Virus record (IMG/VR): IMGVR_UViG_3300009031_000368
Span: 1-64,000 of that record
Source: a virus
Lineage: Duplodnaviria > Caudoviricetes
Direction: 5' to 3' (one strand)
DNA: 64,000 bases
Made by a program: the position numbers and the translations under genes
The notes under the pieces: model-generated
The model's input: only the letters and a program-made list of their open reading frames with translations
The model's database searches: none
Told to the model about the DNA's origin: nothing
Shown here: positions 17,001 to 37,803 of the stretch, one piece after another
How the letters are laid out: each line of letters starts with the position of its first letter
How positions within the stretch are numbered: position 1 is the stretch's first letter

Positions 17001-17603
17001 GTTCGCGGTAAACGTTTCGCAGATGCTCGACCATAACCTGGAGATTCATGATCGATCGATCGAGATCTGTCAAGCTGGCTTCACGGTCTTTGCATGACTG
17101 GCACATCAGATTGTCTCCCACTGGCGTTATTGGTCAAAACCAAGTTACGCCTATCAATATATCATACCAGGATGGAATGTCAAGAAATTTTTAGAAAATT
17201 ACAACACGTTGGCGATGACCTTAGCTGATGCCAGGACAGGATCGTCATCGGAACGGGAAAGCGATGATTCACGAATATCGTCGTGATACATTTCCCAAGT
17301 TTCATCACTCAGTCGCGGTGAATCCTTGAATGTCATCTTGATCCCAACACAAATTGGAAATTCGCTCATGCGCTTACCTGTATCATTCAAGCGGAATACT
17401 TCCGCCTTTTGGTAACAGTAACAGCAGTCGTCATTATTGCTGTGGCTTGTCAAAACCAACACGAACCTGTTACCGTTGACGACAAACTCCGTGCTGCCGT
17501 CGTCGCAGGCATTAAAGATCGTCACGTCAAGTGACTTGCTGATCCAGTTCTCAGGATTGATGGTTACGATACGAAAAAACCGACGTGAATTCTGCTTAGC
17601 CAT
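14094..17603 (-). other. promoter-delimited cassettes of short hypothetical genes (14094-14309, 14331-14570, 14592-15152, 15213-15491, 15534-15716, 15779-16006, 16057-16347, 16428-16733, 16765-17121, 17199-17603)
   Basis: co-oriented ORFs with RBS; promoters with -35 boxes at 15184, 15766, 16410, 17178 and 17665. Confidence 0.6.
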
Positions 17604-17679
17604 GCTGCAACAACTCCCATATTCATTGTTGAAGATGACTACATTATAGCAAGTGAGTTACAAATGTCAAGAAGTTTTT

Positions 17680-18174
17680 CTATGGATTTTCATCATCGTC
17701 AAAATAATCGTAATTCCAAGGTTGGTCGACTTCCTCAATATACTGTTCGATTATGCGTCTCTGCTTAAAGGCCATATCTGCCCTGGCTCGAATGTTCGGC
17801 TTATTTGACTTAGCGTAATGTTCTGCAAGATCGTCCATAGAAGTACAGATCAAATACAGACTAAGGAGGAATGACCTATCGTCAGCGTCAGGGATGTATA
17901 TCTTACCGTGTGCAGACATTGCACTAAAAGTAAAGATGATATCACACAATTGAGACACACGCTCCTTGGCTGTCTTACTATTATCCTTACCCATATACTG
18001 TACAATATAATCAAAGACATCAAGCCAATGTTTTACTGGTACGACATCTCTGCCAATAACTTCAGCATCCTCTCTCAATTGCGCAACGAACTTATTACGT
18101 TCAAGACTTCCAATGTGGTTAATGCCAGACTCCTCAAGCATATCTGCTATAAAACTTAACGACTGATTCATCAT
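17680..18174 (-). CDS. hypothetical protein
   Basis: ATG at 18174 (MMNQSL) with GGAG RBS; the longer ORF-track start runs through AT-rich intergenic DNA. Confidence 0.6.
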   Translation of the reverse strand: MMNQSLSFIADMLEESGINHIGSLERNKFVAQLREDAEVIGRDVVPVKHWLDVFDYIVQYMGKDNSKTAKERVSQLCDIIFTFSAMSAHGKIYIPDADDRSFLLSLYLICTSMDDLAEHYAKSNKPNIRARADMAFKQRRIIEQYIEEVDQPWNYDYFDDDENP

Positions 18175-18325
18175 TTCATCAACTCCTTTAGTTTCCAGCT
18201 TCCGCCTGTGGCTAAATAGCCACGGGACATATACAATATTCCACATTATTAAATTATTTTCAATAAAATAATAGTAGAACAAAACAATAGCATAAACATT
18301 CAATATAATCTAATATAGGTGCTGT

Positions 18326-18625
18326 GTGAATAAAATAATGGAATATGTGGTCTGGCGGTTTCAGAATGGTGAGTTAACGGTATCAGGCGCTATTTACGAA
18401 TTGTTAAGTTGTGATAATACTCTATCATTTATAGAGATGTCAAAGCTGCTAGGATGTAGCGAGATAGCCGTTCATGTCTCAATGGTGAAACTAAAAAAGT
18501 CTGGACGAGTAGTCTCACACAAGAATCCATCTGATAGAAAACGTAACGTGTACGAGACATTTAGTTATGAGCAAATACATCAAGATAGAACAGGACGACA
18601 AAGCGACGCATCCAGCGTTCCTTGA
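18326..18625 (+). CDS. winged-helix DNA-binding protein
   Basis: LSFIEMSKLLGCSEIAVHVSMVKLKKSGRV HTH pattern plus wing DRKRNVY; alternative ATG at 18338. Confidence 0.7.
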   Translation: MNKIMEYVVWRFQNGELTVSGAIYELLSCDNTLSFIEMSKLLGCSEIAVHVSMVKLKKSGRVVSHKNPSDRKRNVYETFSYEQIHQDRTGRQSDASSVP

Positions 18626-20723
18626 TTTCCTTCGAGCATTACCCAGCCAACCGAATTGTGCTAACGATTATCAAAGTAGCCCCACTCGCTTCCTCAGCAA
18701 AGAGGAGGCAATCGCTTATCGATACATCCAACCTGTTTCAGAATTAAAGCTTGGTGTGATAGTACATGACGTCGACCGTGAAGATAGCCTTGAATTTCAA
18801 GGTGAACACATCGGCCCACACATCATCGTTAAGAATAAAGACAATGGAAAATCTCACTACGTTGAGATTATTGAAGGTGCCATATTTGAACGTGATTCGA
18901 CGGATAAGGCAAAGAACCTATACGGCGACATGAAAAAGAAGCTCACCATTGATTATGGTGCAGATGAAAACTATTCCAGCGTGTTCGTAAAGAATCCATT
19001 CAGTGAAGACTTCGACGCCTACGTGCTGGCCGATTATTGTGGTCCACGAAAATTGAAGGATACCGCCAAACTTGTCAAGGATGTCAAAATCCCAACAGCT
19101 ATGAGGTACTCCAAATCCGGCCGTCGTGCCACTTATATAGATCCTACCACGGTAGTTGTCGGTTGTAGGAATAGCAGTACGTTTCATAGCTGTAGGATTA
19201 AATCGTATCAGCATGTTAGATTCTGTACTGAAAGACAACAACTGGTCGACTACGTATTTCAAACATGCAGTGAGTATAACGACCAAATTCCCGTTCCAAT
19301 GGATAAAGCCGAGATATGGAAGATAACCAGGTCCATCGTAAAGTATACTTGGCGCTATAGGAGTAAATTCGCAAACGGCTATCGTAGGTCTTCCCCTTAT
19401 GAAGGAATGAGTCAAGAAGAGATAATGAAGATAGTCGGGAAGAATAAGACTGAAAAGACAAAGCTGAAAGTAGCTCATGGTGCTGCTCAACTACTTGCTG
19501 AAGGTATTGTTCCAACCGTTACCGAAGTCTCTCGCATCACCGGCTGTAGTCGATCCACTGTTCAAAAGCCAGAGTACAAGGAAGTCATCGCACAAGTGGT
19601 TGCTGGCACCTACTGCTTCGGGATCGATTCCCATACCAATCACGGGGTTTCATGTAGTTCCCAGTCTGAACCATTACAGAAGAACAATGAGACATACAGA
19701 GAAGAAGGTAAAGCAGACCATCATCCACTACGGCACTGTGTAGATCATCATGATCCAGAATTCAAAGACATTATAGATGCGTGGAATAACAGCACCATAG
19801 AGGAACAGGTTGACGCTGCTACTGATGGTGTCGATAATGGGGCTAAAAAGAAGGTCAAGAAAGCCTTTAAGCGACTTGCCGTCAACCAGCTTGAAAAGCG
19901 AATCCGTAGATGTAATAAGGTGGCTGAAGTTGAAGCGTTTATTGCAAGTTACGGCATCGAACCAACCGGGCCTACCGATACTTGTTGGGTAAAGGGTGAC
20001 TTCATGAAGCGTAATAGTGTGACGTTTGGAATGAAGTGGAACAACCTTAGCGCACTGGCGTTTCCCATGTATGATGAGGAAGGGAATTTCGCCAATGTGC
20101 TATTCCGGACAACCGTTTACGGTGAAAAACATTGGACGCAAAACAATAATCATAACCTATGTTTGGGAGACACAGTATTTAATCCAGGCGATTCCGTTAT
20201 ATTAATGGAAGGCGAAACGTCAGAAACATTAATGCGTGCAATGTGGGGATGTGAGGAATCGATAAAAGTAGTTGGTGTGCCAGTATTTGCCGACATGAAT
20301 CAACGATTGTTAGAACGGATTGCAACATCGATCGGGCCGGAAGGGCGGGTAACATTGGTAAGACGGATGAAGAGTGATGGAGTAAAATGGATCATCGATG
20401 GGTTCAAAAGTTACGGCATCCGGGCGGCAGAAATCGATTGGAGATTGATGTGTTGTATGTGTGGTTTGTCGATTGTTGAAGGTGAGGAGCTTGACGAATT
20501 CTGTAACTTCGCCAAGTATGTGAATGACCGGTATGGGCATGATTTGTTTATCGATTATGTCAGTGAAGCAATTAGATCCGGCCATGGTGATGAATCAATG
20601 TGGTGTTACATGAAACCAGTTAAAGCAATAGATGATCCGATGGCTTGGGTTTATGAACAGTTGGCGCGTTACAGGGAAGGCTTAGATGTCGATTTTAATC
20701 CAAACGATACAATGATGTTTTAA
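18567..20723 (+). CDS. ColE2-type replicase (AEP + PriCT-1 + HTH) fused to a DnaG-like TOPRIM region
   Basis: RYIQ, VIVHDVD, IVKNKDNGKSHY, GADENYS and KNPFS (Replicase); GCRNSSTF and EIWKITRSIVKYTW (PriCT-1); TEVSRITGCSRSTV (HTH); LAFPMYDEEG and ILMEGE (primase RNAP/TOPRIM). Confidence 0.75.
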   Translation: MSKYIKIEQDDKATHPAFLDFLRALPSQPNCANDYQSSPTRFLSKEEAIAYRYIQPVSELKLGVIVHDVDREDSLEFQGEHIGPHIIVKNKDNGKSHYVEIIEGAIFERDSTDKAKNLYGDMKKKLTIDYGADENYSSVFVKNPFSEDFDAYVLADYCGPRKLKDTAKLVKDVKIPTAMRYSKSGRRATYIDPTTVVVGCRNSSTFHSCRIKSYQHVRFCTERQQLVDYVFQTCSEYNDQIPVPMDKAEIWKITRSIVKYTWRYRSKFANGYRRSSPYEGMSQEEIMKIVGKNKTEKTKLKVAHGAAQLLAEGIVPTVTEVSRITGCSRSTVQKPEYKEVIAQVVAGTYCFGIDSHTNHGVSCSSQSEPLQKNNETYREEGKADHHPLRHCVDHHDPEFKDIIDAWNNSTIEEQVDAATDGVDNGAKKKVKKAFKRLAVNQLEKRIRRCNKVAEVEAFIASYGIEPTGPTDTCWVKGDFMKRNSVTFGMKWNNLSALAFPMYDEEGNFANVLFRTTVYGEKHWTQNNNHNLCLGDTVFNPGDSVILMEGETSETLMRAMWGCEESIKVVGVPVFADMNQRLLERIATSIGPEGRVTLVRRMKSDGVKWIIDGFKSYGIRAAEIDWRLMCCMCGLSIVEGEELDEFCNFAKYVNDRYGHDLFIDYVSEAIRSGHGDESMWCYMKPVKAIDDPMAWVYEQLARYREGLDVDFNPNDTMMF

Positions 20724-20727
20724 TCTG

Positions 20728-23700
20728 TCAGCCTTTCAACTGCCAACACATCAAGGTGGTGTTAAACCGAATTCTTGAACCATCGGCCCAAATGACGGAA
20801 TATTGATCCTCTAGATCGTCAATTGGCCAACATGATTCAATCAACATCATCAGGTCAAGGCAATATTGAAGCTGTGGCAAAAATCGTAGATCCTTTGTCG
20901 CAAGTTCAATATGTTGGAGATACCAGTAGCCGTGATAACTGGTAATTGATTTTGGCTCGGTGAATATCGTTAAATGTTGCAGTGTATCGATGGCACGTTC
21001 GGCTAGGCTTGGCGGCACTAATTCTAAGGTAGGAATTATGCTTTTCAATTCATCCGATGGAGTAATGAACCGGTACTTGAGTCTGCGCCACACATTCATC
21101 ATCTGTAATGCAATATCGCGGTATTTGGAACCATCGGGCCAAAGTGCCAGCATTTTTGCATACTCAGTATATGAGTTGACTAAACAGTTAAAGTAATAAA
21201 TCCTATACGCGATATCGTTCATGTTAAAGCTTCCTAATGGTAATGGCAAAATCCGTCATAGAAAACGACAGCGTTTTTACTCCGGCAGTTTTCTGTGTAC
21301 CGTTCAGTAGTGTCAGTATTGCGGAGATTATCTCCGGATCATCAAAGCCGATTAGTCCAACAGCATCTTCGGCTGTATCTAAATACACAGCTCCATCAGA
21401 ATCAGAATCGACCAACAGATACTTCTTTCCAGCGATTTCATTCATAGTTAATTCATCCCGTGCAATCAGTTGCATCATCTTACTTCAACGATGCCGACAA
21501 AACGATCCGACCAGTATTCGCGATTATCGCACCAGTGTTTTATCATCTCGGCTTCACCGTTAGTCAACATAACGGCCGGATAGTCGGCCCTTTCATCATT
21601 CATCAACACGCCATATCGGCGGATCTGATTGTTGCCGGCCAGGAAAACCATGTCCTGAATTTCGGCCGATACAATCTGGAACAGTGCATTGATGTAATCA
21701 AATTGACTGTCCTTCCGCATCCTGTCGAACACATCTTCGACATACTGATACGGTGTGCTGTCAGTATTGACATGACCACATGCTGGCAATACAACACGCT
21801 CAAACAAATAGTCGTACAGATGACGTGATATGTTCTTATGGAGCGTTTCAGCAATCCTGTCATACATTTTACTGTGCATCATGCCTGAATTACCTTTTCG
21901 CCATATCGTTTACCATCTGTTCAGCTTCTTCCGGCGTTTCTGGAAACATCCTGAAGCGGAAACAGCTCAACACTTGTTCAACATATTGAGGACTACGATA
22001 GACCAACAGCTCATCTTTCAGCCTGGTCCGTACATCGCCCGGCAACACAAAGATATCGGTTACGTGCAGGTTGCCATCCGACGCTATCAATGCTTCAACG
22101 AATATCTTTGCGGCAAACAGGCCCATACCGGTTAGCTGACGTACGCCAATGATGCAAGGAATTTTATTATCGCTTGTCGGCGACATACCGATTGCGGTCT
22201 TCATACGCTTTTCTCCCAAATTAACGACGAGATCGCCTGGCAAGTTCCCTGGCTGCTTTCCTTGACCGGATACGCATCTTTGCCAAGTCATCTACCACGA
22301 CTCCATCATAGCTTATGGAGTAGGAATAGGAGTAGTCGTCAAAATACCAGTCATGTTTGTTTGCATAGAAGTAAAAAAAGTTCATGTTTTGTTCTCCAAC
22401 ATTCTCAAAACAATAACATCAAGCAATGTTCACTTCAACCTTCACAGGCCGGTAATTCCTGGCCTTTTCTCCCATGAAAAACTTTGAATCAGTACCGTTG
22501 GCGATTCCAGCAGCAATTTCGGCATTCTCGAATTTTTCCCACAGAAGATTTTCATGTCCGGCCACACTTTGCCGATTGACGTAAAAGTACGGCCACTTGG
22601 CCGATGATGAATCAAGGAATACCGTGGTGGTTCCATCGGACAATTTGCCAGCGATTGCGTAATGGTTCATTTGATTCCCTTTCATTGGCGCAATTGGTTA
22701 CACATCAGTTAGCTGAGGTCTTCCGCATAAAGGTACCGGGCACCAGCTTCAAAAGCCTGCCGGTAAGCCGTGTACATGGAGAAGTTTTCCCGGTCATCCG
22801 CGTAATAATGGATGCTGTTAACAGTACACCACTGACGGAACCGCGCGACCTTCATATCGCGATCGTCATCAGACATAAACGGATACGTTTCCGGCTCACC
22901 CAGTTCAGCCTTTTTGGCACAGCTAAGAAGCTCAACGCTCTTCTTCCACTCTTCCAAGTCCTACATGAATGACATGGCGGGCTCCGTTTAAAGCGTCTCA
23001 GTGTTTAAAACTGATGACAATATAGCATGGGCGGATCGGTTTGTCAAGAGAAAATTACAAAAACCAATACCAGATTATCCTCGCTTTACAAGCTCACAGT
23101 CGAAAATGCTGGCTTCATGCCAATATCCGCCCGTTCCGGCCCACACAATGGACGGTTCCCTGCCGTTAGGGCAATCGTGTTGTGGATTTATTCCGTTTAG
23201 GTAGTGGTTGATGGTAACATTCTGCGCACGCTTGAGTACCTTGCTGTCATATGCGGGATGTGTTGATGACACAACGGTTCCCTTTTTGACACGTACCACG
23301 TCGCCATTCGCAAAGGGCAAAAGTTCATCGCTGATATGGGCGGCTTTCCTGTTTGCCATGTCAAGCCGATAGTCGGCTTCATTCTCAACGCAATATCCAT
23401 GTTCCTTAATGGCGTCAAGAATGTAGTGCAGCGTGGCAGAGATGACAAGTTGTCCATTATCATCGAGAAGATTCGCCATCATCCGACGACCATTCGACCA
23501 TGAACCACGCTTAACGTTGACGATACGCATATCGATATCCTTTCAGATTGGAGTCAGATTTAAAATCTGAATACAGGATAACACGGCGGTATTGATTTGT
23601 CAAGATGAATTTTAAATTATTTTAAGCCCGACAGCTATGAAAAACTCTTAAGCACATCGGCGAGATGTTCAAACATCTTAATTTCAACATCAAGTATAGC

Positions 23701-36300: not shown

Positions 36301-37800
36301 TCGGATCCAATTTTTCATAGATCAAATTCTGCATCCTGTTATGGGCGTTTTGCAATAAGGCCGGGGGGATCGTCGGAGTAAACGACATATTTGAGGATGC
36401 GTGATATATCAAGATCGGCCCAATGGATCCGAACTAACAACACATTGAACAGGATATCTGACGTTATGTCCACCTTTATTGTTACCATTTCAATGATTGC
36501 CGGTCTAGCGGTTAGTCTTCTGGGATTTTGGATAGGTATCTGGCACCAGTACAGTAGGCCGCTGGTTCACGAAGATATTCAGTATCTTGCCGCGATAGCT
36601 CAATTCATACTGACATGCTGTATCGTGCTAGCATGGTTGTTGTATTGAACTGGTAAAATTGGTATCCCCAATCAATATGTGAAAGGACGTTGTCATGTTG
36701 CCCATCCTGTTAGCGGTTAGTCTTTTACTGTTCTATCTAGACGTGTGGCACACATAAACATGGCCGCCAGGTTCAATACATTCTGGTCTTGCGTACCCTA
36801 TATTCCGCTGTAACGTTTGAAGCAACAACGGCCATGGTGCGGCAAATCGGATCCAATTTTTCATAGTGAAATTCTACGTGGTCGTATGACCCTCCCTAAA
36901 ATCGACCCCCTATGCCTGTCGGAGTAATTGAGTGTTGTTACAACCGGTAGTTGGTAATGGTGCAACAATCCACGTCGGGCGATACATGCGCACCATAACG
37001 ACATGGCGTTAATAATTTAACATTCAGTCCAGTTAACTGCCGATGTACAGATATGGAAATTGAAAAAAGACGGGGTTTTTCTGTTTTGCCCATGGTAGAG
37101 ACATCATTAATCCGATCTGCGGCTAAATCCGTGTTGGATGACTCAACGATAAATAAACTGCCAACGACAATTATAGCCCATAATCCACATACGAAGTGCG
37201 ATTGTCAAATCAGAAAATTGCCAAAGATGTTAAATAAGTAAATCGTCAAATTAAAAACTAACCATTTGAAATGGAAAATCCCTTTAGGAATCTCTATTTT
37301 GAATAGTTAGTTTTTAATTTGAAACAGACTTGCCAAGTTGTATCATGCCCGAAGTAGTCAATCGACATATAGAAGCGTGGACGGCTGTAGCTATTCTGAA
37401 AAAATGAAATTCTCCCTATAGGGACTTTTTCATTTTCACAGAATCAAGTCATCCTTCGCCGGCCGGCAATCAATTGCGCTATACGGGTAAAACGTCATAA
37501 CGTTATGTTAGCGCTAGATAAATTGCACCGACGCGCTGCCGGTAACGCCTAAATGGCAGTTGTGCAATGGTGCAGTGATTGAAGAAATCAAAAATCTCCT
37601 ATAGGGGAATTCTCATTTTCAGGATTCGGCACCATCGCACAACTATGTCGTTATGTCGGCCCGACAAACTGGCTGAAAATGTAACCGGTTGATAATATTA
37701 GATAAGTGGCGCAGCCAGCACCATGACGGTTGCTGTTGTCGGCTGGATATGCGGTATTATCGGTTGGGAAATAAAAATCTCCCTATAGGGAAATCTTAAA
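36301..37800. repeat. repeat-rich, largely non-coding region (candidate origin or terminus)
   Basis: 20-bp exact direct repeat at 36301 and 36847; 77-bp inverted repeat at 37246-37322; CCCTATAGG-type palindromes at 37279, 37413, 37595 and 37780. Confidence 0.7.
36391..36648 (+). CDS. small membrane protein with two predicted TM segments
   Basis: hydrophobic stretches FIVTISMIAGLAVSLLGFWIGIW and LAAIAQFILTCCIVLAWLLY. Confidence 0.5.
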   Translation: MRMRDISRSAQWIRTNNTLNRISDVMSTFIVTISMIAGLAVSLLGFWIGIWHQYSRPLVHEDIQYLAAIAQFILTCCIVLAWLLY

Positions 37801-37803
37801 TCA

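Follow-up and report, generated by a model that had tools for sequence, protein, structure and literature searches.

The window analyzed here, the first 64 kb (64,000 nucleotides) of the 231,714-bp phage record IMGVR_UViG_3300009031_000368 from IMG/VR (completeness about 76% according to CheckV), carries a gene whose 718-aa product, called here P0001, joins two unrelated primase modules in a single chain. The first is a replication protein (Rep) of the ColE2 plasmid type, with a catalytic domain from the superfamily of archaeo-eukaryotic primases (AEP). The second is very probably a divergent primase core of the type found in T7 gp4 and DnaG, in which an N-subdomain precedes a Toprim domain. 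We conclude, with moderate confidence, that P0001 most likely serves as an origin-specific initiator-primase and that its Toprim half is non-catalytic.

A fusion of this sort invites the suspicion, raised in an earlier note made from the sequence alone, that a faulty assembly or a frameshift has joined two genes. The open reading frame (ORF) of 718 aa described in that note is there, uninterrupted by stops (although the position from which the note reckoned, 18175, is the start of the preceding spacer and not of the ORF). An identical protein is encoded on five contigs from separate assemblies, including one of 137 kb, and so the ORF is a real single-chain fusion and not an artifact of assembly. 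The stretch covered by the window recurs in groundwater and soil metagenomes (four studies), and contigs from four further groundwater or soil samples, compared over positions 18100-20800, showed no indels, no joints, and five single-nucleotide polymorphisms. These amount to three synonymous changes and K168Q (that is, three of the four changed codons are synonymous). On scaffold L009 the gene appears split at residue 559, but the interruption is a run of N in the scaffold rather than a real split.

The evidence for the first half comes from several directions. The Replicase family of Pfam (PF03090) matches P0001 with 51.4 bits, where the cut-off of the family is 26 (and with 55.2 bits in a six-frame search). 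The three motifs by which AEPs are defined, hhhDhD, sxH, and hD (PMC5862659), are found as D68/D70, H97, and D133, the last lying just past the Pfam match, and all four residues are invariant in an alignment of P0001 with four plasmid Reps. The same is true of G199, R201, and N202 in the PriCT-1 segment and of G313 and T331 in the helix-turn-helix (HTH). The structure of the DNA-binding domain of ColE2 Rep (PDB 3vw4) matches aa 201-266 with an E-value of 8e-4; the corresponding Pfam model, PriCT_1, gives 0.006, below its cut-off, and HTH_23 and HTH_7 are likewise weak and below theirs. The nearest structure clusters in the ESM Atlas carry Replicase, PriCT_1, and HTH_23. Finally, a tblastn search of PLSDB plasmids found 957 records, annotated as replication initiation proteins, all of them matching only aa 8-335 or so of P0001, at 23-27% identity. 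Because of these matches and these invariant residues, residues 1-340 may be regarded as a complete and apparently catalytically competent initiator-primase of the ColE2 type. This is the architecture proposed in the earlier note, which also placed the motifs correctly: HDVD at 18765-18776, GCRN from 19161, and the HTH at about 19479-19568.

The resemblance to ColE2-P9 Rep and the rest of the PF03090 family thus extends over aa 8-335 and preserves the order of the parts: AEP motifs I to III, PriCT-1, and a C-terminal HTH. It is nonetheless a distant one, with only 23-28% identity to the plasmid Reps, and P0001 differs from them in its extra primase-type half and in belonging to a phage whose genome measures at least 232 kb. 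Of the four plasmid relatives, three are 309-321 aa in length and the fourth is 425 aa.

The second half is harder to place. Nevertheless, the residues from about 455 to 690 can be assigned with considerable confidence to a divergent T7/DnaG-type core (N-subdomain and Toprim), because the ESM Atlas, matches to cyanophage Syn5, and profile comparisons with controls all agree. In the ESM Atlas, the features of this half are nearest (0.96) to those of viral clusters with Toprim_2, DNAG_N, or DUF3854. The Atlas model, with a mean pLDDT of 0.61, resembles ten Toprim-primase clusters over aa 440-697 (TM about 0.5), including primases of the Toprim_3, Toprim_2, and DUF7146 families. A tblastn search through 2.3 Gb of phage genomes (E ≤ 10) gave as its sole match gp24, the primase/helicase of Syn5, a phage present there with two records. 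By pairwise BLASTP (E-value 3e-6), aa 487-582 of P0001 fall on residues 79-170 of Syn5 gp24, in register with the Helic-prim_T7_N region (the a+b subdomain) and the first Toprim strand. Among the motifs of the N-subdomain, FPxxDxxG occupies aa 499-506, and R514 and K521-H-W come after it.

Profile comparison by hhalign leads to the same family. With 80 Syn5-like primase domains the score was 38.2 (P 1.1e-4). With T7 gp4 added to make a T7/Syn5 profile, aa 440-718 scored 41.7 (P 2e-5, probability 77%), aa 495-581 falling on residues 105-188 of T7 gp4, and a profile built independently from 30 DnaG-like primases of phages aligned the same motifs (P 0.0017). The hhalign probabilities for the C-terminal half are only 16-77%. 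Against the T7/Syn5 profile, the phage's own Pfam-positive DnaG-like primase (discussed below) scored 49.9, the reversed sequence of aa 440-718 scored 13.2, aa 1-340 of P0001 scored 13.0, and 60 other proteins of the phage averaged 15.0, with a maximum of 23.6. Shuffling aa 480-640 gave a mean of 14.0 and a maximum of 20.9 with the Syn5-like profile (200 shuffles) and a maximum of 22.6 with the profile of 30 phage primases (120 shuffles). The suggestion in the earlier note of a DnaG/T7-primase RNA polymerase and Toprim region is therefore upheld by the Atlas, the Syn5 match, and hhalign with its controls, and the motifs cited for it lie where they were said to lie (LAFPMYDEEG at 20055-20084, ILMEGE from 20199).

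What remains of the Toprim site can be judged by comparison with T7. The Toprim glutamate is kept: E548 aligns with E157 of T7 gp4 and with E258, invariant in the family of the phage's own primase. S552, in contrast, stands where T7 has D161. The DxD motif coordinates Mg2+ in Toprim proteins (PMC4538821), and its position in P0001 is occupied by R599-M-K601 in the gap-free register (where the next glycine is kept) or by D611-G-F613 in the gapped register of hhalign. In neither register does the motif appear intact, in keeping with the degeneracy that had been suspected from the sequence. Nor does a recognizable zinc ribbon precede the core: the linker (aa 341-455) has no CxxC pairs and no match to Zn_ribbon or any other Pfam model, and it scores only 16.4 with hhalign against the primase profile. 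Since P0001 has neither an intact DxD nor a zinc ribbon, its Toprim half has likely lost catalysis.

In T7 gp4, an acidic tail with a terminal phenylalanine binds DNA polymerase. The last 12 residues of P0001 (20685-20720) end in ...DVDFNPNDTMMF, which may be compared with ...WSNDTDF in T7 gp4 and ...SYDDF in Syn5 gp24; the likeness can be taken as a lead only. T7 gp2.5 also binds DNA polymerase through an acidic tail with a terminal phenylalanine (PMC12339929).

Set beside T7 gp4 and Syn5 gp24 as wholes, P0001 has the N-subdomain and the EGE motif of Toprim in register and shares the acidic tail, but it is unlike them in having no zinc ribbon, no DnaB-type helicase domain, no intact DxD, and a serine in place of D161. 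A comparable case may be metazoan Twinkle (PMC3610141), in which a T7-type primase domain has lost its activity through sequence changes and yet is kept within a replication protein. Twinkle, however, keeps its helicase and has no AEP module, and its loss of activity has been demonstrated, whereas that of P0001 is judged from its residues.

From the architecture of P0001, its conserved residues, and the integrity of its ORF, we infer a mechanism along these lines. P0001, together with the winged-helix regulator encoded upstream of it, would serve as a sequence-specific initiator for the phage. The Rep half would bind and melt a site differing in sequence from ColE2 origins and would make the first primer there. 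The Toprim half, degenerate and non-catalytic, may hold single-stranded DNA or the primer, or it may dock partners such as the DnaB-like helicase of the phage or a polymerase. ColE2 Rep synthesizes a primer specifically at its origin and depends on Pol I (PMC4538821); docking through the Toprim half could replace the simple hand-off to Pol I of ColE2 plasmids. It is possible, if doubtful, that things went further: that an AEP initiator-primase captured an inactivated DnaG/T7-type core as an adaptor, and that the dead Toprim half and the acidic, phenylalanine-ended tail pass the primer to the DnaB-type replisome of the phage.

A number of results weigh against an origin-specific initiator with a non-catalytic Toprim half. 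To begin with, the phage has replication genes of the conventional kind clustered at 105-127 kb of the record, among them one for a 378-aa DnaG-like primase (Toprim_4/Toprim_2), one for a DnaB-like helicase, and those for SF2 helicases. Because of this separate primase and helicase, P0001 is not the only primase of the phage, and why the phage should need it is not obvious. Then, no origin was found. In three of the four plasmid relatives, rep is immediately followed by the ColE2 ori core ATCAGATAAYAGC, but the 232-kb record has no copy of it with one mismatch or fewer, and the number of copies with two mismatches is at the level of chance. In any case, the 4 nt between the P0001 gene and the next gene leave no room for an origin. 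A search for iterons or other repeats around the P0001 gene yielded only short, chance-like matches, and the 11-mers that the preceding spacer shares with other parts of the genome include nothing telling.

Other difficulties concern the C-terminal half itself. The earlier proposal to test each half of the protein with Pfam worked for the first, where Replicase exceeds its cut-off (PriCT_1 does not), and failed for the second, which has no match to Toprim, DNAG_N, or any other model of Pfam or NCBIfam, even at E ≤ 10. Six-frame searches with PF13362, PF13155, and PF08275 match other genes of the phage and not that of P0001. Among 15 billion proteins this half has no sequence relatives. A word-index search gave no homolog, and an exhaustive phmmer search of 1.8 billion cluster representatives returned only P0001 itself and a spurious repeat protein. 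With 13 bacterial DnaGs, hhalign produced no meaningful alignment (P 0.3), and past residue 582 or thereabouts, where the DxD should be sought, the alignment with phage primases is of low confidence. AlphaFold2, run without an alignment on aa 345-718, gave an unusable model (pLDDT 35), which leaves ESM-type models and alignment of profiles as the basis for assigning the fold.

One might suppose instead that both halves are active, the AEP half starting the leading strand at an origin and the Toprim half making further primers by means of non-canonical ligands (E548, E550, D611, and the cluster E638-E641). The Toprim glutamate and the N-subdomain motifs (FPxxDxxG, R514, K521) are indeed kept, one possible alignment preserves the first aspartate of the DxD as D611, and there are acidic residues at 636-645, where primases have their third acidic motif. 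But no alignment gives an intact DxD, serine replaces the aspartate of EGxxD, and P0001 lacks the zinc-binding domain used by T7 and DnaG primases for recognition of the template. The phage has, moreover, a separate canonical DnaG-like primase. We consider the activity of both halves improbable.

Perhaps, alternatively, P0001 has no part in replication: a plasmid rep may have been captured and fused, by accident, with what was left of a T7-like primase-helicase gene, the product being a relic or having been put to another use (for example, interference with competing plasmids or phages). This would suit the isolation of the plus-strand gene pair amid minus-strand ORFan genes, the degeneracy of the Toprim site, the lack of the helicase part that follows Toprim in gp4 of T7 and its Syn5 counterpart, and the failure to find an origin or genes for partition and integration in the record. 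On the other hand, the gene has an intact ORF with all the AEP catalytic residues, a regulator gene of its own, and a product identical or nearly so across four studies, with synonymous changes in three of four altered codons. This explanation, too, seems unlikely. Less likely still is an unrelated orphan domain in the C-terminal half that resembles Toprim primases by chance or convergence, as might be argued from the lack of a Pfam match and of homologs in two sequence searches, the poor AlphaFold2 model, the range of the hhalign probabilities, and a TM of about 0.5 obtained with an Atlas model of modest pLDDT, since three partly independent methods arrive at the same family in the same register and the real-protein, reversed, and shuffled controls score far lower.

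The positions of the module and of its parts are collected in Table 1.

Table 1. Features of the winged-helix/Rep module and the separate primase of the phage. Positions are those of the window unless stated otherwise.
Feature	Position	Strand	Basis or remark
Divergent gene	17680..18174	-	164 aa; ORF list; also 164 aa in the gene call on independent contig L010
AT-rich divergent spacer	18175..18325	.	151 bp; presumed promoter/operator region of the winged-helix/Rep pair
Winged-helix gene (MarR/HTH_24-like)	18326..18625	+	99 aa; overlaps start of Rep by 59 nt
Fusion protein P0001 (ColE2-type Rep, then T7/DnaG-type primase core)	18567..20723	+	718 aa, no stops
AEP catalytic domain (Pfam Replicase PF03090, aa 42-152)	18690..19022	+	Pfam E 1.5e-13
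PriCT-1-like segment (aa 199-263)	19161..19355	+	PDB 3vw4, weak Pfam PriCT_1
C-terminal HTH of Rep module (aa 305-334)	19479..19568	+	Aligned with plasmid Rep HTH
Linker (aa 341-455), Cys/His-containing stretch, then Lys-rich helical stretch	19587..19931	+	Sequence
Primase RNA-polymerase N-subdomain (aa 456-540), very probable	19932..20186	+	BLASTP to Syn5 gp24, hhalign to T7 gp4
Toprim-like domain (aa 541-650)	20187..20516	+	hhalign, ESM Atlas structure matches
C-terminal helical part and acidic tail	20517..20720	+	Sequence; ends ...DVDFNPNDTMMF
DnaG-like primase of the phage	111904..113040 of the record	-	Pfam Toprim_4 and Toprim_2; family conserves E258, D262, D302

The gene for P0001 overlaps that of a small winged-helix protein, as the earlier note had observed. 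The assignment of the fold comes from the ESM Atlas, where the structure of the 99-aa protein has a TM of about 0.6 to MarR/HTH_24 clusters (features 0.92) and where its ten best family matches all belong to one clan; matches in Pfam and PHROG are weak. The protein is likely a regulator of the Rep module. The spacer before it (estimated in the earlier note at about 160 bp) is AT-rich as described, with a GC fraction of about 0.28-0.35 (0.28 at 18200-18349) compared with about 0.44 for the window, and its plus strand offers only weak matches to sigma-70 promoters. On the other side of the spacer, the divergent gene matched nothing in Pfam or PHROG. The stop codon of the Rep gene lies 4 nt from that of a convergent gene, and nearly all the neighbors of the plus-strand pair are on the minus strand and without a family match.

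Some promoter-like sequences in this region may be mentioned, although their total number around the module is at the level of chance. On the minus strand, at 17643-17670 and 17156-17183, are two nearly perfect promoters of the sigma-70 kind, with an extended -10 (12/12 and 11/12). They lie within the repeated motif AATGTCAAGAA(A/G)TTTTT, upstream of small genes of that strand, and so suggest early genes transcribed by the RNA polymerase of the host. A site of the form TTGACA-18-TATTAT (11/12), at 18414-18443, lies antisense within the winged-helix gene, on the minus strand. It could give rise to an antisense RNA across the start of the phage operon, of the kind that ColE2 replicons make. In the 137-kb contig (L010), about 30 bp are missing at 17145-17174 of the window, and identity is only 95% just upstream but 100% across the Rep module; these differences are strain variation beside a conserved module.

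The rest of the record holds further proteins of the primase kind. By BLASTP, the C-terminal half of P0001 has no similarity to the DnaG-like primase of the phage, although both belong to the same superfamily, and P0001 has none to a second AEP-like protein, P0048, so a recent duplication within the phage is not its source. P0048 (724 aa; 221965-224139 of the record, plus strand; 2966-5140 of contig L100) lies outside the window and shows a weak AEP/Replicase match with the motifs LDFD and GYH. It also has a DnaG-type CHC2 zinc ribbon (CPFHQDEHPS..., E 0.0012), a part that P0001 is without, and is thus another mix of AEP and DnaG-type elements in the same phage. Its acidic tail, ending in ...DDDDPIP...MDIPY, resembles the tails of single-stranded DNA-binding proteins. 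Also outside the window, a 616-aa ORF (125208-127058 of the record, minus strand) has sub-threshold matches to Toprim_2 and Toprim_3 and scores about 31 by hhalign with each of the two primase profiles, which would make it a third Toprim-like protein of the phage. No PolA, PolB, or Pol III alpha turned up when the record was searched in six frames with single Pfam models. The polymerase may be encoded in the missing quarter, may be too divergent to detect, or may be supplied by the host.

The possibility that the module supports a plasmid-like state of the phage, which the earlier note had put forward, has no support so far. Besides the ColE2 ori core and iterons, partition and integration genes were sought in the 232-kb record, about 76% complete, with three models only (ParB_N, the ParA-type AAA_31, and tyrosine integrase), and none was found. 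The largest non-coding stretch of the record, at 36649-37803 of the window, contains three palindromic units of 42 nt each (core TCTCCCTATAGGGA), set at intervals of 183-184 bp, along with a hairpin of 36 nt at 37246-37322 and, at 37203-37250, a tandem repeat of 25 nt. The stretch is a candidate for an origin or a regulatory region, though no link in sequence to the Rep module was found.

The search for the same fusion elsewhere, suggested at the outset, turned up no second instance: no record in PLSDB covers more than 46% of P0001, a search of the phage collection with P0001 matched no record, and a word-index search for long Rep fusions found none. Among viral and genome contigs, no loci were found with P0001 or with both of the flanking genes. 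The nearest clusters in the ESM Atlas are Reps of about 290-500 aa and one cluster of 926 aa, none with Toprim, and in 401 sampled bacterial genomes (Pseudomonadota), the PF03090 frames are 135-453 aa in length, without the fusion. Nor was a fusion of AEP and Toprim primases described in the reviews and surveys searched. A survey of viruses with double-stranded DNA found that they encode a homolog of AEP or of DnaG but not both, with one exception (PMC4889955); the phage considered here encodes both types. P0001 is a new domain architecture made from known modules, seen in one groundwater phage population only.

The AEP and DnaG/Toprim superfamilies are unrelated, and P0001 brings both together in one chain. 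If the protein is functional, it would offer a tractable case of a plasmid initiator adapted to a large viral replisome, and it would show how the fold of a primase can be re-used without catalysis. If, in addition, the Toprim half serves as an adaptor (the more doubtful proposition), then a mechanism by which small plasmids replicate in dependence on Pol I would have become the device by which a jumbo phage fires its origin, with a direct physical link between the two superfamilies of primases.

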